Shown: positions 1,075 to 23,658 of the stretch, one piece after another
How positions within the stretch are numbered: the first letter of the stretch is position 1
Layout: each line of letters opens with the position of its first letter
NCBI GenBank assembly: GCA_016927995.1
Contig: JAFGLO010000007.1
Span: 17,467-81,466 of the forward strand
Reading direction: 5' to 3'
Length of the DNA stretch: 64,000 bases
From: Candidatus Dojkabacteria bacterium
GTDB taxonomy: Bacteria; Patescibacteriota; Dojkabacteria; JAFGLO01
The notes under the pieces: model-generated
What the model was told of the DNA's origin: nothing
Seen by the model: the letters and a program-made list of their open reading frames with translations, nothing else
Databases searched by the model: none
Made by a program: the position numbers and the translations under genes

Positions 1075-2181
1075 CTACTCTTTAAGCGGATGGAATTTCT
1101 TATGAGTATCTTCCGCAAATTTATCGGATGCATGAACATATCTTGTAGTCGTATTTAGACTTGCATGCCCCAAAAGTACTTGAATTGCAGCAGGTGATGC
1201 TCCATTTTCGGCCAAATATGTTGCAAATCCATGTCGCAAACTATGAGGAGTAGTAGGCACAACAATTCCCAGAAGTTTTCGATAAGCCGATAATTTTTCT
1301 TCAATATAATTTGTAGAAATTCTGGCGTTTTTTTCACCCTGACGACCACCACGATATGGTATAAAAAGTGCGGGTTTATCATCTTCACGAATCTTTAAAT
1401 ACTCTTTAATCCAGGTAAGGGCCCGCGGAGTAAGATATACAAACCGACCCTTTTTCCCTTTACCGATAACATAAATCTTACCGTTTTCGTTAATCTGATC
1501 ACGATCCAAAGATACAAGTTCAGATACACGCAAACCTGTAGAGAAAAGCACTTCAAGTATGGCCCGGTTGCGAAGTGCAATTTTATCGTCTTTTTCAAAT
1601 TCCATTGGTGCCTCGATAAGCTTTAAAAGTTCGTCAAATTCGGCTACCTGCGACTTTTTGCGCTCAGTTTTAATAAGCTTTATGGCATCGGGTGGAATAG
1701 GGCAGTCGTAGTCAAAATCAACTAAATACTTTAAATACGACCTAAGCGATGATAAAAATCTGTTAATGCTTGAAGCCTGCAAACCCTTTTGCGGTGCCTT
1801 GCCGTATCCATAACGCCCACGATAGGTTGGTACATCAATGCGCTGCCTCGATTTTACTTCATTGTTCTGCTGTTTCACTGTGCCACTATCAAGGCAAGCT
1901 TTCAAAGCAGTCTCCCTTGTAATAGGATCCCCACCTTTTTCTGGATGTAGCCGCTGCAGTACCTTTAAATCTTTTAAATACTCTCCAGTTTGAAGATAGC
2001 TTTTATATAGCGTTATTGTTTTTTTTGAAATGTTTCCAAACTTTTCGCCTTCTTTATCAATAAAAAGTGCAAATACGGAAAGGTCGCGTTTATAATTTTT
2101 TGTGGTCTTGTCACTGTAGTTACTTGCGGTAAGTTCGAGTAGGTAATCGTCTTGTTTGGGTAGATAAAACAGCTTTAGCAT
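1075..2181 (-). CDS. Tyrosine site-specific recombinase, XerC/XerD family
   Basis: C-terminal HSLRHGFATYLAENGASPAAIQVLLGHASLNTTTRYVH (R..H..R..Y catalytic tetrad context), 368 aa. Confidence 0.85.
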   Translation of the reverse strand: MLKLFYLPKQDDYLLELTASNYSDKTTKNYKRDLSVFALFIDKEGEKFGNISKKTITLYKSYLQTGEYLKDLKVLQRLHPEKGGDPITRETALKACLDSGTVKQQNNEVKSRQRIDVPTYRGRYGYGKAPQKGLQASSINRFLSSLRSYLKYLVDFDYDCPIPPDAIKLIKTERKKSQVAEFDELLKLIEAPMEFEKDDKIALRNRAILEVLFSTGLRVSELVSLDRDQINENGKIYVIGKGKKGRFVYLTPRALTWIKEYLKIREDDKPALFIPYRGGRQGEKNARISTNYIEEKLSAYRKLLGIVVPTTPHSLRHGFATYLAENGASPAAIQVLLGHASLNTTTRYVHASDKFAEDTHKKFHPLKE

Positions 2182-2224
2182 GATATATCATTATATCAGA
2201 ACCTCTTATACCAAATACATTACG

Positions 2225-3514
2225 TTAATTATCGTTAAAGATTCCCACGAATAACATTGTATCAGTACTTTTGTCAACAATCATATACATAAATGTGTGA
2301 TCGGCCTTAAAGTAAAACTCATCAGTTTCCACAGACACAATATCAAACCCAACCGTTGTTACGGCAGCTGCTTCTGTTCCTTCTTCATCAACTTTTATGT
2401 ATGAATCATGCTTTACAAGATCTATTGCCAGTGAACAATCGTCTGTAATGCCGGAAAAGTCTGCAGAATCCGAAAAAGCCAGTTCCATACCCATATTATT
2501 CAAGAAATGATTCAGGAAAACACTATATTTCTGTTCAAATTTGGGAAATAGAACGGTCCCTTCATTAAGCTCCATAGCAGCTTCTAAGTCCGAAATGCTT
2601 TCAAACCTCCAAGTCTTCAAAAGACTTGAAACCGTATTTCCTTCTGTTGGCAATACAACATACATAACCAAATTTTCTTTCGCATAAGGAAGCTCAACTA
2701 TCTGCATTGTGTTGTCTTCGTAATAGTTAAGCTCCTGGTCGTAAAGAGCCATTAGATCAACGTAAAAAGGACCATACACATCGCCTACTGGATCAGAATC
2801 TATCATCCAATCCGGTGTAAACTTTTGATTTGGCAAAGTATTGTCGGGATTAAATTGGTATTGCCAATCCTGTTTAAAATAAACGGCATTCGCAAGAATC
2901 ATTCTAATATTAGAAAGCAGATTTGCAGTTACAACTTCCTTTATTTTGTCGTTGGTATTATCAGCAGCCCAGTTGTTAATGGCCAAAGCCGTTTCTAATG
3001 GATTTTCCGGATCAAAACCGTCAATTACAGATGTAAAATAGTTCTTTGCCACATTAACAAACTCATCCTTTAAATGGTATTCCTCACTAAGCCAAATTGC
3101 ATTTGCAGTATCTAAATACTCGGCATCGGTAAGATACTCTTGAAGAATCTTAAACTGCTCGTTTAGCTTGTTAATCTCTATATCATTAAGTCCAAGTGCC
3201 GAAAGCATCTGCTCCTGAGTTTCTCCATTGGCGCCGTTAGCCGCAAGTGCTAGAGCAATTTCAATACTTAACGGGGAAATAAATATAGAATATTTGTGGG
3301 CATCATGATGCGGTATAGGTGTGTATAGCGCAGTAAGCAGATCTAGTCCAAACTCATTAGAAGCCTCGACAACTTTCACACCATCTGTTGAATTAATTTC
3401 ATTAACCTTTGAATCATTTGATTTGCTTTTCCAGGCCAATATTATTGCAACTGTCAAAGTGGTCAAAAGCACTGACCCTGCGATAATTAAAAGTATTTTA
3501 CGCGTTTTGTCCAT
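2225..3514 (-). CDS. Serpin (serine protease inhibitor) with N-terminal membrane anchor/signal
   Basis: 429 aa; N-terminal TM; C-terminal serpin hinge/signature-like FKADHTFMYMIVDKSTDTMLFVGIFNDN; overall serpin-length. Confidence 0.75.
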   Translation of the reverse strand: MDKTRKILLIIAGSVLLTTLTVAIILAWKSKSNDSKVNEINSTDGVKVVEASNEFGLDLLTALYTPIPHHDAHKYSIFISPLSIEIALALAANGANGETQEQMLSALGLNDIEINKLNEQFKILQEYLTDAEYLDTANAIWLSEEYHLKDEFVNVAKNYFTSVIDGFDPENPLETALAINNWAADNTNDKIKEVVTANLLSNIRMILANAVYFKQDWQYQFNPDNTLPNQKFTPDWMIDSDPVGDVYGPFYVDLMALYDQELNYYEDNTMQIVELPYAKENLVMYVVLPTEGNTVSSLLKTWRFESISDLEAAMELNEGTVLFPKFEQKYSVFLNHFLNNMGMELAFSDSADFSGITDDCSLAIDLVKHDSYIKVDEEGTEAAAVTTVGFDIVSVETDEFYFKADHTFMYMIVDKSTDTMLFVGIFNDN

Positions 3515-3567
3515 TTCGTTTAAAACAAGTTAACTTAAACATATAGATATCCTAGGTTACACTCATT

Positions 3568-3873
3568 ATGATAAAATTGCACATGGCATATAAAAATAAT
3601 AACCAACCTTTCGTTTGCAAAAACTGCGGCAGGAAGGTCCCAAAACTTAAGGTAGGAAACCGAGACCACTGTCCTTTCTGTCTACACGGGCTACACGTAG
3701 ATATAGAACCCGGCGACAGAAATAATACCTGCCACGGTATACTAAAGCCGCTTAAAATCGTAACTCGCAAAGGCAAGCAGCAGATAGAATTTAAGTGTGA
3801 AAGCTGTGGCGATACCGTTTACTGTTTAATAGCTCCAGATGATAACCTTGAAGTGTTAAATAAAGCCTTATGA
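3568..3873 (+). CDS. RNHCP-domain zinc-ribbon protein
   Basis: CKNCGRKVPK...RDHCPFCLHGLHVD...CHG...CESCG: multiple CxxC pairs and R-N-H-C-P-like motif; 101 aa. Confidence 0.55.
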   Translation: MIKLHMAYKNNNQPFVCKNCGRKVPKLKVGNRDHCPFCLHGLHVDIEPGDRNNTCHGILKPLKIVTRKGKQQIEFKCESCGDTVYCLIAPDDNLEVLNKAL

Positions 3874-4892
3874 AAGAAATTATCGCACTCTCCCCAATGG
3901 ATGGAATAACCGATCTTCCGTTTCGACTTATGGTAGAACAGTTTTCTCCAATGATAAATACAGTCTATACCGAATTTGTTAATGTACAAGGGTTATACGA
4001 GAAACCCGATTTGCACGTAAAGCGCTTACTCTACCGACCAGAAGAACCCAAAATATTCGCTCAGTTTTTTGGGAATGGATCTCAGCTTAAGTACTTCGAA
4101 ATTGCAGCTTTTATTGCCAAGCAAATGGGATTTGACGGAATTGATTTAAACTTAGGCTGTCCGGAAAAGCGAGTTGTTCAAAGTGGCGCAGGTTCAGCAT
4201 TAATCGGAAATGAAAAGACGGTAAAATCAATTATTTCCGCTATCCGTACAGGATTAAAATCAGATTACAGCACCGATTCAAAGGTTAAAAAAATATTAGC
4301 AGAAGTAAATAAGACGAGGGCAGCAGGATTTTTGAGACCACAGAAAAAAACATTGACCATAAGTATAAAAACACGACTAGGAATCAAAGAAGTAATGCCC
4401 GATACGTGGTGGAAATTTCTTGATACGCTCAAAGTTGATCTTATTACAATTCACGGTAGAACCCAATCCCAAATGTATTCCGGATCGGCAAATTGGAAAC
4501 ATATTCAAAAAATAAATAAACTTATGCAAACCCCGATTTTAGGAAACGGTGATATAGGTAAAGCATTTTTTACAGACGAAAACTATAATGCTCAAAACGA
4601 GCTTTCAAGCAAGCTCAAGATTACCCCCGAGGGTATATTAATTGGCCGTGGATTCTTGGGAAATGTGGATCTACTTTCGCGGCATAAAGTAACTCGCACA
4701 TTGAAGGGTCAGTTAAGTTTTATAAAAAAACATATTGAACTTTATAAAGCTTTCGCCCCTGAGTATATTGATCCGCTTAAAAAACATATTGTCTGGTACC
4801 TTAAGGGGCTTCCCGATGTTAAAGATCTAAAGCAAAAATTTATGGAATGTGAAACATACGAGGATTGTGATACAATTTTATCGCAGGTTTAA
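3870..4892 (+). CDS. tRNA-dihydrouridine synthase (Dus family, TIM barrel)
   Basis: LSPMDGITDLPFRLMVEQ... N-terminus typical of Dus; GCPEKRVVQSGAGSALI catalytic Cys region; start overlaps upstream stop (ATGA). Confidence 0.75.
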   Translation: MKEIIALSPMDGITDLPFRLMVEQFSPMINTVYTEFVNVQGLYEKPDLHVKRLLYRPEEPKIFAQFFGNGSQLKYFEIAAFIAKQMGFDGIDLNLGCPEKRVVQSGAGSALIGNEKTVKSIISAIRTGLKSDYSTDSKVKKILAEVNKTRAAGFLRPQKKTLTISIKTRLGIKEVMPDTWWKFLDTLKVDLITIHGRTQSQMYSGSANWKHIQKINKLMQTPILGNGDIGKAFFTDENYNAQNELSSKLKITPEGILIGRGFLGNVDLLSRHKVTRTLKGQLSFIKKHIELYKAFAPEYIDPLKKHIVWYLKGLPDVKDLKQKFMECETYEDCDTILSQV

Positions 4893-4903
4893 AAAATATC
4901 CCC

Positions 4904-6217
4904 ATGAACATAACAATCGATCGTACTTGGAAATCTATTCTTTCAACACTTGAAAAGGATATTCCACCATTCACCTTAATCACAGGCAAAGCAGGAACAG
5001 GAAAATCCACACTACTTACACACTTTTTCGAGACCACATCTAAGAATTCCGTACTACTTGCACCAACAGGCGCAGCAGCAGTAAATATTGGCGGACAAAC
5101 AATCCACTCATTCTTTGGATTTACCCCAGCAACTACCATAAAAGATGTATTCGCCAAGGCGAAGAACAAATCCAACAACGTACACAAAGTAATAGAAAAA
5201 CTCGACTGCATTATCATTGATGAAATCTCTATGGTTAGAGCAGATCTTTTGGACTTTGTAGATACATTTCTTCGAATCTCAAAAGCATCAGATCAACCGT
5301 TTGGTGGGCTTCCAATAATTGCATTTGGCGACCTATACCAGCTTCCACCCATACTACAAAGAGACGAAATGGATGAATTTTCAATAATGTATGAAAGCCC
5401 ATACTTTTTTTCATCTCAAGTTATAAAACGAATCACAAAAGAAAGAGCTCTAAGTGCATTTACACTTGATACAATTTATCGTCAACGTGACGAAAAGTTT
5501 ATAAATATTCTTAATTCCATAAGAGAGGGCAACGCATCATTTCAAGGGTTAACATACCTAAATCAAAATTGCTTTAAGCTAACAAGTTCCGAAACAGACT
5601 CAATTTATTTAACAACCACAAATCAGAAGGCCGATATGGTAAATGAGCAGAGACTAGCGACTATTTCTAACCCGGTAAGAACATATACCGCGTATGTTTC
5701 CGGAGATTTTAAAGAAAACGCATTTCCAACACAAGAAATTCTAAAATTAAAAAAGGGTGCTCGAATAATGATGCTAAACAACGACAAAGACGGCAGATGG
5801 ATAAACGGAACACTCGGAAATATTACAGAACTCAAGGATGGATCTGTACTTGTACAGCTCGACGGACAAGCTGGACAAAATACAACTCATGAAATTTTCC
5901 CCAACGAATGGGAAATATTTAAAACAAGCTGGGACAATTTAACAAAATCTTTAAAAAAAGAGGTTGTTGGTTCATTTATTCAACTTCCTATAAGACTTGC
6001 CTGGGCAATTACAATCCACAAGAGCCAAGGTAAAACATTTGAAAAAGTTGTTATTGATCTTGAACGTGGTGCATTTAGCGAAGGGCAAACCTATGTTGCC
6101 CTAAGTAGGTGCACAAGTTTAGAAGGGTTAACCCTTTCACGACCTGTTAAACCGTCCGACATAAAAGTCGACCAACGAATTACAGATTTCTTGCAATCTG
6201 TTTCATCAATTGTTTAA
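4904..6217 (+). CDS. PIF1/RecD-like ATP-dependent DNA helicase (AAA_30/PIF1 family)
   Basis: Walker A GKAGTGKST, IIDEISMV (Walker B), C-terminal ITIHKSQGKTFEKVVIDL...TYVALSRCTSLEGL motif of PIF1-like helicases. Confidence 0.75.
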   Translation: MNITIDRTWKSILSTLEKDIPPFTLITGKAGTGKSTLLTHFFETTSKNSVLLAPTGAAAVNIGGQTIHSFFGFTPATTIKDVFAKAKNKSNNVHKVIEKLDCIIIDEISMVRADLLDFVDTFLRISKASDQPFGGLPIIAFGDLYQLPPILQRDEMDEFSIMYESPYFFSSQVIKRITKERALSAFTLDTIYRQRDEKFINILNSIREGNASFQGLTYLNQNCFKLTSSETDSIYLTTTNQKADMVNEQRLATISNPVRTYTAYVSGDFKENAFPTQEILKLKKGARIMMLNNDKDGRWINGTLGNITELKDGSVLVQLDGQAGQNTTHEIFPNEWEIFKTSWDNLTKSLKKEVVGSFIQLPIRLAWAITIHKSQGKTFEKVVIDLERGAFSEGQTYVALSRCTSLEGLTLSRPVKPSDIKVDQRITDFLQSVSSIV

Positions 6218-6280
6218 TCATCACCCGTTTCATCATTTATTCGTTCATCATCCGTTTCGTCATTTATTCGTTCATTATTG
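6218..6280. repeat. Tandem repeat, 2 x 27 bp (CATCAYCCGTTTCRTCATTTATTCGTT) immediately after helicase stop
   Basis: Direct reading of sequence. Confidence 0.7.
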
Positions 6281-6497
6281 TAGAGACAGGTCTAGACCGA
6301 CATGTGTGCATAAAATCCACGAAAGACTCTAACTTCCCAAACGATATGATTAGAGTCTAAATAATCCATATTTTACGGGGGTCCTGAAAGAAATAATAAG
6401 ATCCAACACAACTTTACACACACCCGCACCCCCAACTTACAGAATGATTACCTAATAACGAATCTACAACTGTGTGTCGGTCTAGACCTGTCCCTAC
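6280..6497. mobile_element. MITE-like non-coding element copy A (~218 bp) with palindromic terminal inverted repeats GTAGRGACAGGTCTAGACCGACA
   Basis: Terminal inverted repeats at 6280-6302 and 6475-6497. Internal motifs (CGAAAGACT, CCATATTTTACG, CACACCCGCACCCCCA) are shared with copy B at 23436-23658. No ORF. Confidence 0.55.
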
Positions 6498-6519: not shown

Positions 6520-7500
6520 ATGATAATCGTTACGGGCGCATCGGGTCATCTTGGAAATGTGCTGGTTCGATACCTTTTAACCATGGAAAAAGAGGTTGGG
6601 GTAGTGGACTTGGATCCCCAAAACGATCCCGTACTAAAAGATCTTCCGGTAAAAATGTATAAAGGCGACGTTCGTGATCTTGATTTTCTTATAAAAACTT
6701 TTAGCCAGGCAGAATATGTCTTTCATTTAGCAGGAATTGTTGCAATATCGCCAGGTAAAGAAGATCTCATGTACGACGTGAATATAAATGGAACTAAAAA
6801 CGTTGTTGCCGCCTGCATGAAGACAGGTATAAAGCGACTAGTATATACAAGTTCAGTACACGCTTTACATGAACCACCCAAAGGAATTCCACTAACAGAA
6901 AAACTAGGCGATCCCGAAAAAGTTTTAGGCCCATATGCAAAAACAAAAATATTGGGAACCCGTGAAATATTCAAAGGAATAAAAGCGGGGCTTAATGCCG
7001 TAATTACCTATCCATCCGGAGTTATTGGTCCATATGATTTTAAAGGTTCAGAAATGGGGAACCTTATAAACGACTACATCAAGGGGAAATTTAGATTTTA
7101 TCTTGATGGTGCCTATAATTTTGTTGACGTACGTGATATTGCACGAGGACTTTGGCTGGCAAAGGAAAAAGGCAAATCCGGTGAAGACTATATTCTTTCC
7201 GGATATACAATAACCGTTAAAGAACTGTTCCGCAGCCTGTCTGAACTTACGGGAATAAAACAACCTAAATTTAGAATGCAGACCTGGTTTGCAAAATTTG
7301 TAGCACCGCTTGCTGTCTTGTACTATAGAACTACAAAAACTACTCCTGTATTTACACCATACTCCATAAACGTTTTGAACTCTAATGCCGAGATGAGTTT
7401 TAAAAAAGCAAGTGCCGACCTGGGTTATACAGTTAGACCGCTTATAGACACGCTTAGCGCAATTATCCGTTGGCGAAAAGGGCAGAATATTGAAATTTAA
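6520..7500 (+). CDS. NAD(P)-dependent epimerase/dehydratase (extended SDR) family oxidoreductase
   Basis: N-terminal Rossmann IIVTGASGHLGNVLVRYLL; YAKTK (YxxxK) catalytic motif. Confidence 0.8.
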   Translation: MIIVTGASGHLGNVLVRYLLTMEKEVGVVDLDPQNDPVLKDLPVKMYKGDVRDLDFLIKTFSQAEYVFHLAGIVAISPGKEDLMYDVNINGTKNVVAACMKTGIKRLVYTSSVHALHEPPKGIPLTEKLGDPEKVLGPYAKTKILGTREIFKGIKAGLNAVITYPSGVIGPYDFKGSEMGNLINDYIKGKFRFYLDGAYNFVDVRDIARGLWLAKEKGKSGEDYILSGYTITVKELFRSLSELTGIKQPKFRMQTWFAKFVAPLAVLYYRTTKTTPVFTPYSINVLNSNAEMSFKKASADLGYTVRPLIDTLSAIIRWRKGQNIEI

Positions 7501-7554
7501 AAACTTTTGGTATAATAGAAAATATCTAATTTATCCTTTGTTAAAAATAAGTCC

Positions 7555-7773
7555 ATGAGAACCAGTGCATACCAAATGAAAGCACGATCTAATCTTTCAA
7601 AATTTAAGCGCACCGTACCACAAAGTCTTGAACATATTGAAAGGTTACAGAACCTTCAAACCAAAGCAGCAGATATAAAAGCAAAGCTTGCCCAAAAATC
7701 CACAAAGGTCGATACTATACGCAAACTTCCTTCAAAATATGGAGAAAAGGTTCCAGCCAAACCCAAATCGTAA
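7555..7773 (+). CDS. Small basic hypothetical protein
   Basis: 72 aa ORF, Lys/Arg-rich; no recognizable family. Confidence 0.3.
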   Translation: MRTSAYQMKARSNLSKFKRTVPQSLEHIERLQNLQTKAADIKAKLAQKSTKVDTIRKLPSKYGEKVPAKPKS

Positions 7774-7814
7774 TAAAGAGAAGTTAAACGGCTCCCTAAA
7801 CAAACCCTGATTTT

Positions 7815-8678
7815 TTAAGTTTTTATTCTTAACAGCTCACTAAAGATATACTCATATATGTTTTCTATTAAATCTTCACCATTGTCTGTAGCAAAATGTG
7901 AGAACCCCGGAGAGCTATTAAGCTCAATCAGCCATAACTTGCCTACTTTATCCAAGGCAATATCAAACGCAAGATAATTTGCCGAAAGCTTTTCAAATAC
8001 ATAATCAACAATAGGTTGAAAGCTTGCAATTAAATTCACATCAGTCACTATTACCGCCTTTGAATTACTCCAATGAAGCGGACTTAGATTACCCTCAAAT
8101 GTAGCATTGGATATATCCTTTTTGTATGCTAAAAGTATCTTTTTTCTAAATACAATTACGCGATATTCAGACGCTACGTCCAAAAACTCTTGAACTACGG
8201 ATAAATAGTCATAGTCAGGAGTCTTCTCGAATATCACCCCAAGTGCGCTTTTAATTTCTTCACCATTTTCACATTTTTTTACATTGAGTCCTAGCGACCC
8301 TTTATTAGGCTTCACAATAACCGGGTATTTAAAGTATTTCTCGATATCAGTAATAATTTCATCCATGTTCTTAAACTTAACCCACATTTTATGCTCATCT
8401 TTAACATCAGGATCCAGATAGGCCCTCCACATTGGAATAAATTCCGGATCACAATCTGCGGTTAAAATACTATAGCTTAGATCTTTGTCTTTACAAATCT
8501 TTGAAATATCTACACTATCAAAGGCAGGGTGATGATGAATGAAAAAATAGGGTTTACCAATTGTTACCTTTAGACAGATACCATCTTTGTGTACAAAAGA
8601 GTAGGGTATGTTCAAAGTTTTGCATACTGTGATAATTGCACGCGTGTGAAGTGAGAGGTTTGAACTAATAGGTTCCAT
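7815..8678 (-). CDS. ATP-grasp fold ligase (RimK/glutathione-synthetase-like)
   Basis: VIVKPNKGSLGLNV (ATP-grasp Lys/Gly loop) and LAFDIALDKVGKLWLIELNSSPGF (Mg/ATP-binding E-N motif). Confidence 0.55.
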   Translation of the reverse strand: MEPISSNLSLHTRAIITVCKTLNIPYSFVHKDGICLKVTIGKPYFFIHHHPAFDSVDISKICKDKDLSYSILTADCDPEFIPMWRAYLDPDVKDEHKMWVKFKNMDEIITDIEKYFKYPVIVKPNKGSLGLNVKKCENGEEIKSALGVIFEKTPDYDYLSVVQEFLDVASEYRVIVFRKKILLAYKKDISNATFEGNLSPLHWSNSKAVIVTDVNLIASFQPIVDYVFEKLSANYLAFDIALDKVGKLWLIELNSSPGFSHFATDNGEDLIENIYEYIFSELLRIKT

Positions 8679-8839
8679 GCAATAGCGCTTAATCTTATGT
8701 AGTCAATACTATAATCTGAATATTAATAACTGTAAAGTATTTATCAAGGGTATTAATAAATATTGTGATGTTAATTCCAGGTCCGAATGTTTGCAAAATT
8801 TATTAAATTGCACTATTTTAATATTACGAAAATACGATT

Positions 8840-9460
8840 ATGAAGAAAACAACATTTGTATACACAATAGGCATTGTCTTATTCTGTGGAGTTATAGGGC
8901 TTACAATAAGGTCACTCAGAAGCAGCTTTCTTACCTTAACCCCCTTTGTTATTTCAGTGATTACGCTGTTAATCCTTTTTCTTGAAACCAAAGAAAACAA
9001 AAATCTTTTATTTCCAGTAGCTATTACATATTTAATTACCTTTATAAGTGAAGTCATTGGAGTAAATACGGGATTCATTTATGGAAACTATGAATACAGT
9101 ACCCGTCTCGGACCCAAAATCATTAGTACACCTCCTTTAATTGGCTTTTTGTGGGTTGTACTCTTGCTTGGGTCCTTAAATATTTTCAAGGACCAAAAGC
9201 ATCCAATTATTAAAAGCCTTTGTGTAGCAAGTCTAATGACAGCGATAGATATAATAATAGAACCTGTTGCCATTAAACTTGACTTCTGGAGCTGGTTTGG
9301 GAAAAATCCACCTTTATACAATTATATTTCATGGTTTTTAGTAAGCTTTATAGGAGCCTTAGTTCTCAATGGATATAAACCCAAAGATAATTTATCCAAG
9401 ACAGTATTTTGGTTAATTGCAATATTTTTCTTTTTACTTAACCTTACTTATATACAATGA
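8840..9460 (+). CDS. Carotenoid-biosynthesis-associated membrane protein (PF04240/DUF422, CruF-like hydratase family), tentative
   Basis: 206 aa, about 6 TM helices; motif EVIGVNTGFIYGNYEYSTRLGPKI...TPPLIGFLW resembles the GxxTGxPFGxYxY core of PF04240. Only one His, so it is not a Blh/Brp dioxygenase. 3' end overlaps the start of the next gene. Confidence 0.4.
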   Translation: MKKTTFVYTIGIVLFCGVIGLTIRSLRSSFLTLTPFVISVITLLILFLETKENKNLLFPVAITYLITFISEVIGVNTGFIYGNYEYSTRLGPKIISTPPLIGFLWVVLLLGSLNIFKDQKHPIIKSLCVASLMTAIDIIIEPVAIKLDFWSWFGKNPPLYNYISWFLVSFIGALVLNGYKPKDNLSKTVFWLIAIFFFLLNLTYIQ

Positions 9461-10914
9461 AAAAAATTATCGTAATCGGAGGAGGAATAAGCGGACTTGC
9501 AACTGCTGCACTTTTAGCAAAAGACAGTAATAACGTAACTATTTTGGAGAAAAACGAGATGCTAGGTGGCAGAGGTAGAATGTGGAAATCCAATGGCTTT
9601 TCTTTTGATATGGGACCATCTTGGTATATGATGCCCGAAGTGTTTGATGAATTTTTCGCAATATTTGGACACAAAGTTTCGGACTTTTATCACTTAGAGC
9701 AGCTTGATTCACACTACAAAGTATTTATATCAAACGGAAATTCCTACAATATAACCAAAGACATTAACGCAAACAAATCGCTTTTTGAGAGAGCCCAGCA
9801 GGGTGGAGGCAAAGCCTTAGAAAAATATCTAGACAAATCAAAAGATACTTATGAAATCGCAACAAAAAATCTAATGTATTTTGACTATGAAAATCTTACA
9901 GACATTTTAAAACCCGATGTTTTATACAAACTTACTCAATTAAATTTACTAAAAACTTTTCACAAATATATAACCAGGTTTTTCAAATCAAAAGATCTTC
10001 AAAAAATTATAGAGTTTACAACCGTTTTTCTTGGCGGATCACCATATAACACACCTGCATTTTATAATTTAATATCACATGCAGACTTTAACCTTGGAAT
10101 CTGGTATCCAATGGGTGGAATGTATGAAGTAGTAAAAGCGCTGGAATCACTTTGCAAAGAGCTTGGAGTAACTATCAAAACCAGTGAACCGGTCACCAAA
10201 GTCAATATAGAAAACGGTATTGCCCAAACCGTTGAAACAACAAAAGGTCACTACAATACCGATGCCGTAGTAAATACGGCTGATAGGCAATATTTTGAAA
10301 CAAGGGTGCTTTCCGACAAAACCCAAAGAACCAATTGGGACAAAGCAGTTATGTCACCCTCTGCATTTAATATTTACATAGGTATAAACAAAAGGCTAAA
10401 TGGAGTTGAACATCATAACTTATACTTTAATGACACGTGGGAAACTCATTTCAAAGAGGTATATAAAAACCCTGATTGGCCGGAAACACCATCATATTAC
10501 TTCCATGTACCATCTAAAACCGATCCTGGTGTAGCGCCACAGGGAAGTGAATCAATATTTATTTTGGTGCCTGTAGCACCGGGACTTAACGATTCAGAAG
10601 AAATAAGAGCGGCTTTCGCTACAAAGATGATAACTCACCTCGAGAAATTAACCGGTCAGTCAATAAGTCCACACATTGTTACTCAAAGGATTTTCTCACG
10701 CAGAGATTTTACTTCTGATTATAACAGCTTTAAGGGTTCGGCATTTGGACTTGCACATACTCTATTCCAAACGGCTCTTTTTAGACCTCTAAATAAAGAC
10801 AAACGGGTAGAAAATGTATTTTATGCCGGTCAATATACAAATCCCGGTGTAGGAGTCCCAACAGGTATAATTTCGTCCATGATTGTACGAAAACTAGTTG
10901 CTAATATGCCGTAA
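9457..10914 (+). CDS. CrtI/CrtD-family FAD-dependent carotenoid desaturase (phytoene desaturase family oxidoreductase)
   Basis: N-terminal FAD fold VIGGGISGLATAALLAK...LEKNEMLGGRGR; 485 aa; C-terminal YAGQYTNPGVGVPTGIISS typical of CrtI family. Confidence 0.75.
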   Translation: MKKIIVIGGGISGLATAALLAKDSNNVTILEKNEMLGGRGRMWKSNGFSFDMGPSWYMMPEVFDEFFAIFGHKVSDFYHLEQLDSHYKVFISNGNSYNITKDINANKSLFERAQQGGGKALEKYLDKSKDTYEIATKNLMYFDYENLTDILKPDVLYKLTQLNLLKTFHKYITRFFKSKDLQKIIEFTTVFLGGSPYNTPAFYNLISHADFNLGIWYPMGGMYEVVKALESLCKELGVTIKTSEPVTKVNIENGIAQTVETTKGHYNTDAVVNTADRQYFETRVLSDKTQRTNWDKAVMSPSAFNIYIGINKRLNGVEHHNLYFNDTWETHFKEVYKNPDWPETPSYYFHVPSKTDPGVAPQGSESIFILVPVAPGLNDSEEIRAAFATKMITHLEKLTGQSISPHIVTQRIFSRRDFTSDYNSFKGSAFGLAHTLFQTALFRPLNKDKRVENVFYAGQYTNPGVGVPTGIISSMIVRKLVANMP

Positions 10915-10954
10915 GGTTCACAAAACCATAGGACCCAAAAACTATACTAATTTA

Positions 10955-11716
10955 CTAGTTTGGCCTTAAGGTTCCGGCCCAGACTTGCCAAGCAAGCGCA
11001 GATTTAGCAAACAGGCTTAAGAAAATATAGACTTTTTCGCCAAAGGTATAATCTTTCCATTTGCCAATTTTTTTGTACTGAAGCACCATGTTTATGGCAA
11101 AACAGTTAAAGAAAACAAAGATTGAAACAAAGATCCAATATACAAAGTCGGGTGGGGAAGCTTCTTTTCCAATGTATGATCCCAAATAAAGTGCAATGTT
11201 TACCCACGGGAGAATTCCGGCTATCGATCCAAAGATAAATGAAAGCCAGTTTGTCTTTTTCGTAGTTTGGTTGTGAACCTCCATTATGAGTCCAAACAAA
11301 ATCATCATTGCATTAAGCCCAAACATGGAAATCAAGGAGCTAAACTCATAAATTCCGACAAGCATGGCAATAATCACTATCATTACCGAAGAGCTGAATG
11401 TATATTCTATCCATCGTGCATAGTTTATTCCTTTTTTAAGGTTTCGAACGTACCAGTCAAATACTCTGGGTAGGGTAAGAATAAAGTGTGCAGATGAAGA
11501 CATAAAAAGAAAAAGTGCCACAGCTGGGCCAATTGGTATCTCAAAAAGTGTTTTTATGTATGGTGATAAACTCTGAGTAGCCGGATTAAACTCTAAAAAA
11601 TTCCCAATCACAGGCAACGCAAAATCGGTGCTTAAGCTTAGCATCAAAATTCCTTGAATTAGGTGGAAAACACCCATCCAGAAGTTGTACGTGCGAAGTT
11701 TCGCAAATTTCCCCAT
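10955..11716 (-). CDS. Heliorhodopsin (7-TM retinal-binding protein)
   Basis: 253 aa, 7 predicted TM helices. N-terminal NFWMGVFHLIQGILMLSLSTDFALP matches the heliorhodopsin N-terminus pattern. His18, His77, Glu104 (WIEYTFSS) and Lys238 (LFAKSALAW, last helix) sit at a constant -3 offset from the H23/H80/E107/K241 residues described for heliorhodopsin 48C12. Aligned from memory, not computed. Confidence 0.7.
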   Translation of the reverse strand: MGKFAKLRTYNFWMGVFHLIQGILMLSLSTDFALPVIGNFLEFNPATQSLSPYIKTLFEIPIGPAVALFLFMSSSAHFILTLPRVFDWYVRNLKKGINYARWIEYTFSSSVMIVIIAMLVGIYEFSSLISMFGLNAMMILFGLIMEVHNQTTKKTNWLSFIFGSIAGILPWVNIALYLGSYIGKEASPPDFVYWIFVSIFVFFNCFAINMVLQYKKIGKWKDYTFGEKVYIFLSLFAKSALAWQVWAGTLRPN

Positions 11717-11779
11717 ATAAAAATCTGGTTAACTTAAGCTATCCTAGTATAGCAAATTAAAAGAATTTTTTGGGGGATT

Positions 11780-12280
11780 TTACCATTTCTCTTCGTGAAC
11801 CTTAGATTTATTATATTCATCCTCTGTATGCGGGCTAGGGGAGGCTGCAGCTTTTCCAATAGCAAGTGCACATAAAACCCTTCTATCATCTGGAATATTT
11901 AGAATTTTTCGAACAAGCGCCTCGCGGTCGCCGTCATCTTTTCTAACGTTAGCCCAACAGGACGAAAGCCCTTGGTTAACAGCCTCTAGCATCATATATC
12001 CAACCGCAAGTGAACAATCTTCTATCCAGAATCTACCTTCCGTAGACACTACAATAATTGCTGCGCTACAATCGGCTAGGAATGCTTGATACTGGCCAAG
12101 TCCACTAAGCTTTTTAAGGGTATCTTTATCTTTTACAACAACAAATTCATACTCTTTAAGGTTCATGCCAGAAGGCGCGACCATTCCTGCTGTAAGAATC
12201 TCTTTAACTTGGGAATCGGTAATTTGGAATTTCGGTTCAAAACTTCTAACACTTTTGCGGTTTTTAAAAAGATTGTGCAT
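11780..12280 (-). CDS. Nitroreductase family protein
   Basis: NRKSVRSF near N-terminus; 166 aa; nitroreductase fold pattern; same strand and 63 bp upstream of the heliorhodopsin gene. Confidence 0.75.
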   Translation of the reverse strand: MHNLFKNRKSVRSFEPKFQITDSQVKEILTAGMVAPSGMNLKEYEFVVVKDKDTLKKLSGLGQYQAFLADCSAAIIVVSTEGRFWIEDCSLAVGYMMLEAVNQGLSSCWANVRKDDGDREALVRKILNIPDDRRVLCALAIGKAAASPSPHTEDEYNKSKVHEEKW

Positions 12281-12327: not shown

Positions 12328-12789
12328 TTAAACAGAAAACTTGTCCTTGATTGAGGGACTTATCGACTGCAGGATGTTTATCAGCCTCGCAATATCCTTT
12401 TCATCAAAAAGTTTATATCCAAAAAATACCTTGGTTCTTTTGTTCTCAGAAATAAAAACAATTACCACGCTACCTTTACGACGCACGTGTTCCTCAATAA
12501 CAGATATGTCCGAGATTAAAATAGACTGGACCGAAACTAGCTGCTTCACCACCAGATAATCATTCTCTATGATAACTTTCGTTGTTATCATATATAGTCC
12601 AAAACTGATACCTATAATAATCATGCAAAATACAGACAGTGCAAAGGGAGTAATGACATCCAGTTGACCATCGAAAACAAGTATTGAGAGAAACAAAAAC
12701 ATAAAAATGAATCCACCTAACAGGCTATTCACAAATACGGCCTTTTTATAGCTTGGCCGAATGATTAATTTTGTTATTTTTTCTTCCAT
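12328..12789 (-). CDS. Membrane protein, possible bacterial PH (bPH/YdbT-like) domain protein
   Basis: The first 36 codons of the track ORF are Arg/Cys-rich and look non-coding, so the start is taken at Met37 (MEEKITKL). Two TM helices followed by a soluble domain. Confidence 0.4.
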   Translation of the reverse strand: MEEKITKLIIRPSYKKAVFVNSLLGGFIFMFLFLSILVFDGQLDVITPFALSVFCMIIIGISFGLYMITTKVIIENDYLVVKQLVSVQSILISDISVIEEHVRRKGSVVIVFISENKRTKVFFGYKLFDEKDIARLINILQSISPSIKDKFSV

Positions 12790-13011
12790 GTTTCTTGTAA
12801 GTATCAGACCTCCAAATCGGAGTGGTCGTCGCAATGACCTTGCTGCGACGAAACAAACATGTTGTGCTAAAGCACAACGACAAAGCCTCTTAAGCAAAGC
12901 TAATCCCAGCCCGCAAACCCTTAAGCGGGCTAACTTTCCCTAGAAAGGGAAAAATTTGATAAGAACGGTCGTGGAGTTCAATCACACTACTTCCATAATG
13001 TAAAGATCAAA

Positions 13012-13085
13012 TCGGAGTGGTGGGACTCGAACCCACGACCTCACGGTCCCAAACCGTGCATTCTAGCCAACTGAACTACACTCCG
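13012..13085 (-). tRNA. tRNA-Pro (anticodon TGG)
   Basis: Reverse complement CGGAGTGTAGTTCAGTTGGCTAGAATGCACGGTTTGGGACCGTGAGGTCGTGGGTTCGAGTCCCACCACTCCGA folds as a cloverleaf. Anticodon loop is TTTGGGA with a GTTCGAGTC T-loop. Confidence 0.85.
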
Positions 13086-13320
13086 CTTTTTGATAGAACT
13101 TGTCTCGCTTAAATCGGCTTCTTTTTATTTCAAGCTCGTACTTTCTTGCCTGCTCAATTGTATCAAATCTTTCATAATATATTAATCTCCATTGAGAAGA
13201 TCTTTTAGTATAATTACTTCTCTTACTATTATGCTCTTCCGTTCTTCTCTTCAAATTTGTTGTTGAACCAACATACCTTTCTCCAAACTCGTTTTCTAGC
13301 AAATATACAAAACCACTCAT
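13063..13320 (-). CDS. GIY-YIG nuclease superfamily protein (YhbQ/UPF0213-like)
   Basis: FVYLLENEFGERYVGSTTNLKRRTEEHN matches the GIY-YIG core (compare E. coli YhbQ [27 protein letters not shown]). The last 8 codons read into the tRNA-Pro 5' end and stop at the D-loop TAG. Confidence 0.7.
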   Translation of the reverse strand: MSGFVYLLENEFGERYVGSTTNLKRRTEEHNSKRSNYTKRSSQWRLIYYERFDTIEQARKYELEIKRSRFKRDKFYQKAECSSVG

Positions 13321-13336
13321 AACTTTAAATCACGGT

Positions 13337-13394
13337 CCTCTATCTGTCGATAGACAGGCAAACCGTGCATTCTAGCCAACTGAACTACACTCCG
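13337..13394 (-). pseudogene. Truncated duplicate of tRNA-Pro (positions 1 to about 44) with a 20-nt hairpin inserted in the anticodon loop
   Basis: 35 nt identical to tRNA-Pro 5' half (13360-13394 vs 13051-13085). TCTATCTGTCGATAGACAGG is inserted between anticodon-loop residues. The sequence continues GGACCGTGA and then diverges, with no T-arm. Confidence 0.6.
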
Positions 13395-13590: not shown

Positions 13591-14019
13591 ATGAGACTCT
13601 GGTCAATACACCCCAAATATCTAGACGCCAAAGGACTTATAGCACTGTGGAGAGAATCACTTTTAGCAAAAGCCGTTTTGGAAGGAAAAACCAAGGGTTA
13701 TAAAAATCATCCACAACTTATAAGATTTAAAAACTCAAGTAATCCCAAGTCCCTGATCAATAACTACTTAGAGCACATTCACAAAGAAGCCAGTCGTAGG
13801 GGATATTCATTTTCAAAATATAAATACCGGGAAGTAGATCCCCAACCCAAGATAGCTATAACTAGGGGGCAGTTAGATTTTGAACTAAACCATTTACTCA
13901 AAAAATTGAGGAGTAGGGCACCACAATTCTATAAAGTCCTTAGAGCTACAGGGAAAATATATCCACACCCGATATTTAAGTTAATCAAGGGACCCATATC
14001 AGAGTGGGAGAAGTTTTGA
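13591..14019 (+). CDS. Pyrimidine-dimer DNA glycosylase-like protein (PF03013-like), tentative
   Basis: N-terminus MRLWSIHPKYLDAKGLIALWRE...KGYKNHPQL recalled as typical of this family; 142 aa. Confidence 0.4.
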   Translation: MRLWSIHPKYLDAKGLIALWRESLLAKAVLEGKTKGYKNHPQLIRFKNSSNPKSLINNYLEHIHKEASRRGYSFSKYKYREVDPQPKIAITRGQLDFELNHLLKKLRSRAPQFYKVLRATGKIYPHPIFKLIKGPISEWEKF

Positions 14020-16123: not shown

Positions 16124-16930
16124 CTAATTATTTACAACCCGGTTTCGACCAAGCTCCTTAGCGCGATAAAGCCTTATATCCGCGATCTTTACAAGTTCCA
16201 CGGCATTTGCCGCATCACTGGGTAGAGTTGAAACACCTATACTAACAGTGATGTTTAAATCGAGAGCGGAAATAATCCCGGAGATTCTTCTTGCAACATT
16301 TGCAGCCGGAATATTTTCCGTATCGGGCAACAAAACAACAAACTCCTCACCTCCATATCGATAGGCTCTGTCCATGGGACGAATATTTCCCGATATATGT
16401 TTAGCAACGGTCGTAAGTAATTTATCACCGGCTTGATGACCGTAACTATCGTTGTATTTTTTAAAAAAGTCTATATCTATCATAAGGCAGGAAATATGCG
16501 TTTTATACTTTTGGGCATCTAAAACAAGTGTTTCTATGTCTTTATCAAAATGACCTCTATTATAAAGCCCGGTCAAAGCGTCACGATTTAATTTCTCAAT
16601 AACGTTTCTATACTTCATTCCTCTAACAAGAACCGGTCTTATCTCTTTTATAATCTCGTCAAAGAGCTGTTCATCCTGGGTTGTGAACTTCTCCCGTTCG
16701 GGAACAATTAAATCAATAACACCTTTTACATCCTTTAAAATATCAAAAGGGATTGCTTTCACAACAAAGCCCATATCCGCCTTAGCCGAGTAATTTGCAG
16801 ACAAGTCAGAATTTTTTATTGCGTTAATTCTTACAGTGGGTAAATCAAAAGAAACGCTTACATCTTCATTATGTTCATCCGTCGACTTACAACGCGCCGT
16901 TTTATCATAACAAACATGAGAAATAACCAA
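16124..16930 (-). CDS. Diguanylate cyclase (GGDEF domain) with N-terminal uncharacterized sensor region
   Basis: RYGGEEFVVLLPDT (GGEEF active site) and upstream RGHFD/ D-x-D context; 268 aa. Confidence 0.85.
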   Translation of the reverse strand: MVISHVCYDKTARCKSTDEHNEDVSVSFDLPTVRINAIKNSDLSANYSAKADMGFVVKAIPFDILKDVKGVIDLIVPEREKFTTQDEQLFDEIIKEIRPVLVRGMKYRNVIEKLNRDALTGLYNRGHFDKDIETLVLDAQKYKTHISCLMIDIDFFKKYNDSYGHQAGDKLLTTVAKHISGNIRPMDRAYRYGGEEFVVLLPDTENIPAANVARRISGIISALDLNITVSIGVSTLPSDAANAVELVKIADIRLYRAKELGRNRVVNN

Positions 16931-23436: not shown

Positions 23437-23658
23437 TAGTAGGGACAGGTCTAGACCGACACCCATGTATAGAAGTTGGTAATAGTATCCACTTTTGATT
23501 AACACGACGAAAGTCTAGATAACCCATATTCTACGTATGACTACAAAAAAAATGATTCGATAGAAACACAGCTTGCGCACACCCGCACCCCCATTCGCCA
23601 AAACTCTCATTCACCAGCATGTCTACGCAACCGTGTCGGTCTAGACCTGTCCCTACGG
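23436..23658. mobile_element. MITE-like non-coding element copy B (~223 bp) with palindromic terminal inverted repeats
   Basis: Terminal inverted repeats TAGGGACAGGTCTAGACCGACA (23440-23461) and TGTCGGTCTAGACCTGTCCCTA (23634-23655). It shares CGAAAGTCTAGATAACCCATATTCTACG and CACACCCGCACCCCCA blocks with copy A. Confidence 0.55.

Follow-up and report, generated by a model that had tools for sequence, protein, structure and literature searches.

A stretch of 64,000 nucleotides from a Candidatus Dojkabacteria genome (assembly GCA_016927995.1, contig JAFGLO010000007.1, positions 17,467–81,466 of the forward strand; hereafter the window) carries a heliorhodopsin (HeR) gene lying tail to tail with a cruF-crtI pair of carotenoid genes. 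Among about 160 related loci this linkage is a one-off of the present genome, and the result is mostly negative. The arrangement is best explained by two independent units with a shared light/photo-oxidative-stress theme, namely a HeR photoreceptor and a convergent cruF-crtI operon for hydroxylated acyclic carotenoids, an explanation to which we assign a rough probability of 0.55. The physiological role of HeRs is unsettled, and a preprint claims that they are carotenoid-binding "two-antenna" proteins (10.1101/2025.11.27.691015); a conserved linkage between HeR and carotenoid genes would have lent genetic support to that claim.

The three genes are already annotated at NCBI, on a 95,241-bp contig of a metagenome-assembled genome (MAG), as carotenoid biosynthesis protein, phytoene desaturase and heliorhodopsin HeR, respectively:

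8840–9460, plus strand: PF04240 CruF-like membrane protein, putative carotenoid 1,2-hydratase, 206 aa (MBN1374062.1)
9457–10914, plus strand: CrtI-family flavin adenine dinucleotide (FAD) desaturase, "CrtID" clade by TIGR02734 and NF058655, 485 aa (MBN1374063.1)
10955–11716, minus strand: heliorhodopsin by PF18761, NF038020 and PDB alignment, 253 aa (MBN1374064.1)

Besides these annotations, HeRs of Dojkabacteria (seven occurrences; PMC9166423), crtD and cruF genes in the Candidate Phyla Radiation (CPR) and, outside this lineage, HeRs placed next to carotenoid genes were already published. New is this specific Dojkabacteria arrangement, though unconserved, which adds one case to the published sporadic neighbourhoods of HeR, carotenoid and ultraviolet (UV) repair genes.

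The heliorhodopsin gene

The protein encoded at 10955–11716 matched PF18761 over model positions 1–242 of 242 (E = 1.4e-99; 332.8 bits, cutoff 26.7) and NF038020 with 345.8 bits (cutoff 100). When phmmer was run against the PDB, the closest solved structure was that of TaHeR from Thermoplasmatales (6IS6, E = 1e-82), and HeR 48C12 (6SU3) was matched with E = 1e-63. In the printed 6SU3 alignment, residues H18, H77, E104 and K238 stand opposite H23, H80, E107 and K241 of 48C12, and the lysine belongs to the helix-7 SxxxK motif (S234-L-F-A-K238 opposite S237-L-V-A-K241) that defines the Schiff-base Lys of HeRs (PMC9166423). On these matches the gene is judged a bona fide heliorhodopsin, in agreement with an earlier reading of this DNA made without database searches (the sequence-only reading), whose named open reading frames (ORFs) were all found in the ORF listing at the positions it had given. 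The same reading had placed the four hallmark residues at a constant three-residue offset from 48C12, and this needs correction, the offset being 5 at H18/H23 and 3 only past a two-residue indel.

What marks TaHeR and 48C12 is thus all kept: the Schiff-base Lys with its Glu counterion, the two His residues, the SxxxK motif and the residues of the fenestration. The present host, in contrast, is a CPR bacterium. From the full-length alignment with TaHeR, the protein is predicted to have an inverted topology (N-terminus inside), to bind retinal and to undergo a long photocycle with no ion pumping. As for the fenestration, the carotenoid-binding site proposed for HeRs consists of 48C12 residues F162/C166/G169/F206/N207/A210 and is present in 91.3% of HeRs (10.1101/2025.11.27.691015). 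Taking as criteria two aromatic residues that face each other (48C12 positions 162 and 206), small ones at 166 and 210, Gly169 and Asn207, we found a complete match in the window protein (F160/S164/G167/F203/N204/A207), which is non-discriminating because nearly all HeRs carry the motif.

The nearest database relative of the protein is only 70% identical. The GC content at third codon positions (GC3) of the HeR gene is 0.41, compared with 0.30 in cruF/crtI, 0.30–0.32 in the neighbours and 0.33 ± 0.03 in 14 reference genes, a weak hint of a separate origin or of codon constraint.

The cruF-crtI pair

The product of 8840–9460 matched PF04240 (E = 2e-26; 93.6 bits, cutoff 25), as the sequence-only reading had expected of a CruF-like protein, and scored under all three CruF equivalog cutoffs (TIGR03460, 77.6 of 154.7 bits; NF041333, 53.4 of 300; NF045693, 19.8 of 400). 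Its top NCBIfam match was the model for bisanhydrobacterioruberin hydratase. Likewise, assignment of 9457–10914 to the CrtI family was borne out by TIGR02734 (444.1 bits, cutoff 238.1), by matches to PF13450 and PF01593, and by the FAD Rossmann motif IVIGGGISG at residues 5–13. The best model for this desaturase was NF058655, "bifunctional phytoene desaturase/3,4-desaturase CrtID", with 628.4 bits, just short of the cutoff of 640; CPR and archaeal relatives from our locus collection (loci are designated by L numbers) score above it, with 646–716 bits (L082, L083, L085, L061). By its model scores the window enzyme is a slightly divergent member of the CrtID clade. A literature search on "CrtID" for a characterised enzyme behind NF058655 returned nothing relevant.

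The cruF stop and the crtI start overlap by 4 nt (ATGA), as had been noticed, and the two genes therefore form one translationally coupled operon. The CrtI protein is 53–56% identical to those of other CPR genomes. In a further Dojkabacteria locus (L082) a PF04240 gene precedes crtI in the same order as in the window, with no HeR within 10 kb; in another (L083) crtI is followed by a lycopene cyclase gene, and the 598-kb contig of this locus carries a HeR gene at another place. The CruF homolog nearest to the window protein (45% identity) comes from crtD-cruF...crtI-crtB-cyclase clusters (L172–L174), probably of Bacteroidota origin because a protein with a type IX secretion system (T9SS) tail adjoins the cluster. 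A flavobacterial CruF has been shown by experiment to be a 1,2-hydratase converting lycopene to hydroxy- and dihydroxylycopene (PMC11855829). Like the Bacteroidota-type crtD-cruF (myxol) clusters, the window pairs a CruF 1,2-hydratase with a CrtI-family 3,4-desaturase; unlike them, it has the reversed order cruF-crtI, one CrtID-type enzyme in place of separate CrtI and CrtD, and no crtB, crtY, crtZ or crtA-OH nearby.

Compact operons of the type crtI-crtB-(crtE)-lycopene cyclase, each a complete beta-carotene pathway, were observed in Roizmanbacteria (L084) and in metagenome contigs (L085, L086), and no description of such CPR operons was found in the literature searched. Their CrtI is 53–55% identical to that of the window and falls into the CrtID clade as well, whereas the window has CruF where they have crtB and cyclase. 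Some CPR bacteria have thus retained enzymes of carotenoid metabolism, and other CPR lineages possess full crtEBIY operons, which bears on the source of the chromophore of CPR rhodopsins. Within one of the operons (L086, 12980–13486) a 168-aa protein without Pfam family is encoded, and a 76%-identical homolog lies in a WS2 genome (L019, 1374–1874) 63 bp upstream of HeR and on the same strand; the window holds no homolog of it.

Gene geometry and the nearest neighbours

The sequence-only reading had called the desaturase gene divergent to HeR. In fact, the two are convergent, crtI (plus strand) ending at 10914 and HeR (minus strand) at 10955, with 40 bp between the stops, so that they share no promoter region and are separate transcription units. 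No intrinsic terminator was detected between them. Two further genes bear on the light-related reading of the locus:

11780–12280, minus strand: nitroreductase-family flavoprotein (PF00881, E = 4e-23)
13591–14019, plus strand: pyrimidine-dimer DNA glycosylase for UV repair (Pyr_excise, PF03013, E = 1.5e-22)

As had been reported, the nitroreductase gene shares the strand of HeR and precedes it by 63 bp. TGnTATAAT-like extended −10 elements, judged by eye, precede each of these two genes, so that they may be transcribed together or separately. The glycosylase gene is 1.9 kb from HeR, and three light-related functions (glycosylase, cruF-crtI and HeR) fall within 5 kb.

Missing pathway genes and the source of the carotenoid

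Pfam scans of essentially all genes of the window found no member of PF00494, PF00348, the lycopene cyclase, UbiA (PF01040) or Blh families, and tblastn with CPR queries found no CrtB, CrtE or cyclase in it, in line with the earlier observation that crtB, crtE and blh are lacking. Precomputed Pfam calls likewise gave no crtB, crtE, crtY, lyeJ or blh in about 10 kb of right and about 5 kb of left flank. These negatives cover about 79 kb (the 64-kb window plus about 15 kb of flanks) of a genome with roughly 1 Mb more.

Retinal synthesis requires a lycopene cyclase and the cleavage dioxygenase Blh/Brp. The cruF-crtI pair cannot yield retinal, since neither enzyme is encoded in the 79 kb and CruF hydrates the psi-end needed by the cyclase. 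On the basis of the absence of crtB from the window only, the pair may tailor carotenoids without de novo synthesis; since the closest CPR CrtI homologs sit beside crtB, however, this genome may plausibly encode crtB at another place. The sequence-only reading had also likened the pair to a haloarchaeal cruF-crtD pair next to bop and brp; in Halobacterium, lyeJ-cruF-crtD are presumably not adjacent to bop/brp.

Conservation of the neighbourhood

On the HeR side, 80 loci, including flanks of at most 10 kb, were taken from GTDB species representatives (CPR, Chloroflexota, Thermoplasmatota and Actinomycetota) and the three closest HeR relatives (67–70% identity) were added, giving 83 loci and 1.19 Mb, which were searched by tblastn with the window proteins. 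No CruF, nitroreductase or ATP-grasp homolog (the latter encoded upstream of cruF, see below) was found in any of them. A CrtI-family gene was present in two, one from Thermoplasmatota (L061) and one from Chloroflexia (L068), neither of them CPR. The first has the order UbiA-cyclase-CrtI-CrtB-DUF1722-UvdE...HeR, i.e., the published context of zinc-finger HeRs (Znf-HeRs), beside which genes for carotenoids and UV repair have been described (Bulzu et al. 2021, PMC8612252); crtB and UvdE lie near HeR in another locus (L045). Altogether, carotenoid genes occur within 10 kb of HeR in 3 of the 83 loci, where a rough estimate would put the number expected by chance at about 0.3, an excess in line with the loose link between HeRs and photoprotection genes that has been published.

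With the Znf-HeR loci of Thermoplasmatota (PMC8612252) the window shares a HeR a few kb from CrtI-family genes and from a UV-damage repair enzyme. It differs from them in that its HeR has no N-terminal zinc-finger extension, Pyr_excise takes the place of UvdE, only CruF and CrtI are present without crtB or cyclase, and the layout is convergent. Glycosylase homologs were found near HeR twice, in a Dojkabacteria locus (L008, 1124–1549; 52% identity), 610 bp upstream of HeR in the order Pyr_excise-DUF2177-HeR, and in an Anaerolineales locus (L072, 6066–6488; 47%). A pairing of HeR with this glycosylase is not named by Bulzu et al. As for the three closest HeR relatives, two (L168, L169) have a sigma-factor-like gene as neighbour and the third (L167) the order DUF1295-DUF2177-HeR-MgtC.

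Some other contexts were observed around HeRs. In Dehalococcoidales (L051, 8121–10759) a short-chain dehydrogenase/reductase (SDR) gene, a steroid-5-alpha-reductase-like gene (PF02544) and HeR form an overlapping run on one strand, and this SDR is a 47%-identical full-length ortholog of an SDR encoded in the window (see below). In 5 of the 83 loci (L167, 6751–8723; L034, L014, L079, L072), or 6 if the PF02544/DUF1295 protein of L051 is counted, a homolog of the DUF1295 protein of L167 is encoded no more than 10 kb from HeR, and DUF2177 is immediately upstream of HeR in L167 and L008. Bulzu et al. make no mention of a DUF1295-HeR association, and the DUF1295/SDR/DUF2177 contexts may represent an unreported isoprenoid-redox association of HeRs.

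On the carotenoid side, 80 metagenome loci with PF04240 relatives at 31–41% identity held no HeR, no nitroreductase and no ATP-grasp gene, while a CrtI-family gene was found within 10 kb in 38 of them. CruF and a CrtI-type desaturase are a genuine, recurrent functional pair, to which HeR does not belong. In Patescibacteria of Lake Baikal, crtD, cruF and lyeJ have been reported, sometimes dispersed over the genome, and interpreted as a membrane adaptation (PMC9948471). The likeness to the window lies in carotenoid-tailoring genes of a CPR genome whose remaining pathway genes are unclustered; the difference is that no lyeJ was detected in the window and that no HeR adjacency was reported from Lake Baikal.

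Two units with a light-related theme

Under the explanation preferred here, the first unit, HeR, would by homology to TaHeR and 48C12 be a retinal-binding, non-pumping photoreceptor; its minus-strand transcript would start at a promoter of its own or continue from that of the nitroreductase gene upstream. The second, the plus-strand cruF-crtI operon, would combine a CruF-type 1,2-hydratase with a CrtID-clade desaturase and lead from phytoene/lycopene to hydroxylated, possibly 3,4-didehydro acyclic carotenoids, e.g., hydroxy- or dihydroxylycopene, which might act as membrane and photoprotective pigments. Together with the pyrimidine-dimer glycosylase and the nitroreductase, the two units would make up a loose, lineage-specific light/photo-oxidative-stress neighbourhood, in which any common regulation by light is, like the enzyme products and the photoprotective role, putative.

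Several points weigh against this explanation. The shared light theme is post hoc and, L008 apart, recurs not even in part in the CPR loci, so that plain chance adjacency fits almost as well; no crtB was found in the 79 kb to account for the substrate of cruF-crtI; the exact activities of CrtI and CruF, both below equivalog cutoffs, are uncertain; and the full set of proposed fenestration residues in HeR would leave room for a direct pigment-protein link.

Alternative explanations

Chance adjacency is the strongest alternative, although we regard it as somewhat unlikely. It takes HeR and cruF-crtI to be unrelated and joined by shuffling of a small genome bearing an integrase and miniature inverted-repeat transposable element (MITE)-like sequences. 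It is favoured by the lack of recurrence in either locus collection, by the convergence of crtI and HeR, by the GC3 shift of the latter and by signs of mobile elements nearby, namely the integrase, the MITE copies and a GIY-YIG insertion at a tRNA gene (see below). Against it stand the sporadic presence of carotenoid or UV-repair genes near HeRs of three other lineages (L061, L045, L068, L008, L072), above the roughly estimated 0.3, and the concentration of three light-related functions in 5 kb.

A direct role of the pair in serving HeR, as chromophore supply or as antenna, had been suggested by the sequence-only reading and found no support: the arrangement recurs in none of the 83 HeR and 80 PF04240 loci, the genes are convergent, and cyclase and Blh are missing from about 79 kb. 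In the antenna version, which we hold improbable, a hydroxylated carotenoid, either produced or tailored by CruF and CrtI, would dock at the HeR fenestration as a second pigment and either pass energy to retinal or stabilise the oligomer. Bacterioruberin, a product of CruF, binds the trimers of archaerhodopsin-2 and pharaonis halorhodopsin. The immediate adjacency of HeR and cruF-crtI and the presence of every residue of the proposed binding site speak for such a role, and so does the type-1 rhodopsin NM-R3, for which a cryo-electron microscopy structure with bound myxol is cited in the preprint (10.1101/2025.11.27.691015), flavobacterial myxol being made via CruF and CrtD. However, the fenestration motif is shared by about 91% of HeRs, the binding site is itself a proposal from docking and sequence whose authors favour exogenous xanthophylls (10.1101/2025.11.27.691015), in characterised antennae a ring enters the fenestration while a locus without cyclase would give acyclic products, and the linkage is not conserved across the surveyed loci. 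In a more specific scenario, to which we give still less credence, a host-dependent CPR bacterium lacking phytoene synthase would import carotenoid precursors of its host or environment, CrtID and CruF would tailor them into a hydroxylated pigment, and the pigment would dock at the fenestration of the adjacent HeR as second chromophore. If true, a HeR antenna that is genetically encoded and tailored endogenously would be on record for the first time. In any case, the locus offers a convenient test case, with three small co-expressible genes.

It is very improbable that cruF and crtI are part of a C50 pathway of the bacterioruberin type (lyeJ-crtD-cruF) that serves membrane rigidity or cold adaptation, as has been proposed for Patescibacteria of Lake Baikal, and is unrelated to light sensing. 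Such a role would fit the crtD, cruF and lyeJ genes reported, sometimes dispersed, in Patescibacteria (PMC9948471) and the bisanhydrobacterioruberin hydratase model as top match of the CruF-like protein; against it, no UbiA-family lyeJ was found in the window or its flanks, the CruF score stays under the equivalog cutoff, and the nearest CruF homologs sit in Bacteroidota-type myxol clusters rather than in bacterioruberin clusters. Least probable of all is that cruF-crtI acts in a retinal or retinal-analogue pathway for HeR, as this has in its favour physical adjacency only, the retinal requirement of HeR and the lack of blh in rhodopsin-bearing Saccharibacteria, also CPR (PMC9296517), and is opposed by the absence of lycopene cyclase and Blh/Brp from about 79 kb, by hydration of the psi-end and by the rapid uptake of exogenous retinal by TaHeR-type HeRs.

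Other genes of the locus

The remaining genes around the three are the following:

6520–7500, plus strand: extended SDR, HpnA/3-beta-HSD-like, 326 aa (PF01370, PF01073; TIGR03466, 227 bits, below cutoff)
7815–8678, minus strand: RimK-like ATP-grasp ligase (PF08443)
12328–12897, minus strand: small hydrophobic ORF upstream of the nitroreductase gene, 189 aa from TTG, with hydrophobic segments
13012–13085, minus strand: tRNA-Pro(TGG), by ARAGORN and Rfam
16124–16930: GGDEF diguanylate cyclase, 4.4 kb from HeR

The SDR and the ATP-grasp ligase had been proposed to complete the cluster. Both family calls hold; membership of the ATP-grasp ligase is unsupported. As a conserved partner of crtI, the ligase was rejected: the RimK-like protein encoded likewise divergently beside crtI in L083 is only 24% identical, and no homolog is present in any HeR or PF04240 locus. 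The ligase is probably unrelated to the carotenoid pair. The SDR is a possible but unproven member of an isoprenoid module. An extended SDR is directly upstream of PF04240 in 20 of the 80 metagenome loci, with only 24–32% identity to the window SDR, which is the background level for extended SDRs. In these 20 loci (among L087–L166) the usual form is a recurrent trio of extended SDR, PF04240 and lycopene cyclase genes (e.g., L115, 8944–11696), with a GC content of 0.37–0.43.

The small hydrophobic ORF is called as 87 aa (12328–12591) in the Logan assembly and matched no Pfam family over 12328–12897. In the GGDEF protein the N-terminal 114 residues carry no domain assignment; GGDEF genes occasionally occur near HeRs (Bulzu et al. 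2021, PMC8612252). The tRNA-Pro gene bounds the minus-strand run of small ORF, nitroreductase and HeR, and an Rfam scan of the window returned two tRNAs only.

Signs of mobile elements

Two features are considered here:

6280–6497: MITE-like element, 218 bp, in the SDR promoter region, with 23-nt terminal inverted repeats (TIRs) that are 96% complementary
13063–13320: GIY-YIG endonuclease ORF, 85 aa, beside tRNA-Pro

The first, already noticed as MITE-like in the sequence-only reading, is short, non-coding, bounded by TIRs and present in multiple copies, as is typical of MITEs. A second copy of the same size lies at 23439–23656 (two copies in 64 kb, with 0 matches expected by chance); the two are 80% identical overall, with near-identical TIRs and an interior moderately conserved save for the block CACACCCGCACCCCCA. 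A 19-nt piece of the interior recurs at 932–950. The two-copy alignment showed no obvious flanking target-site duplication. Of the promoter-like sites ahead of the SDR gene, the best takes its −35-like hexamer (TAGACC) from the right TIR.

Copies of a perfect 36-nt direct repeat (13050–13085 and 13359–13394), corresponding to the 5' half of tRNA-Pro, stand on both sides of the GIY-YIG ORF, which looks like a homing-endonuclease insertion at a tRNA gene. The 14-nt 3' end of the same tRNA (13008–13021) is repeated 195 bp off, at 12813–12826, inside the small membrane ORF. A genomic island reaching from an integrase gene (1075–2181) to tRNA-Pro was considered and rejected, as the surroundings of the integrase gene contain no att-like copy of the tRNA 3' end. 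Upstream of the cluster, at 1075–6217, the window encodes this tyrosine integrase, a serpin, an RNHCP-domain ORF, Dus and a PIF1-type helicase, and a 27-nt tandem repeat (6200–6253) extends over the PIF1 3' end; the genes and the repeat may be mobile-element remnants.

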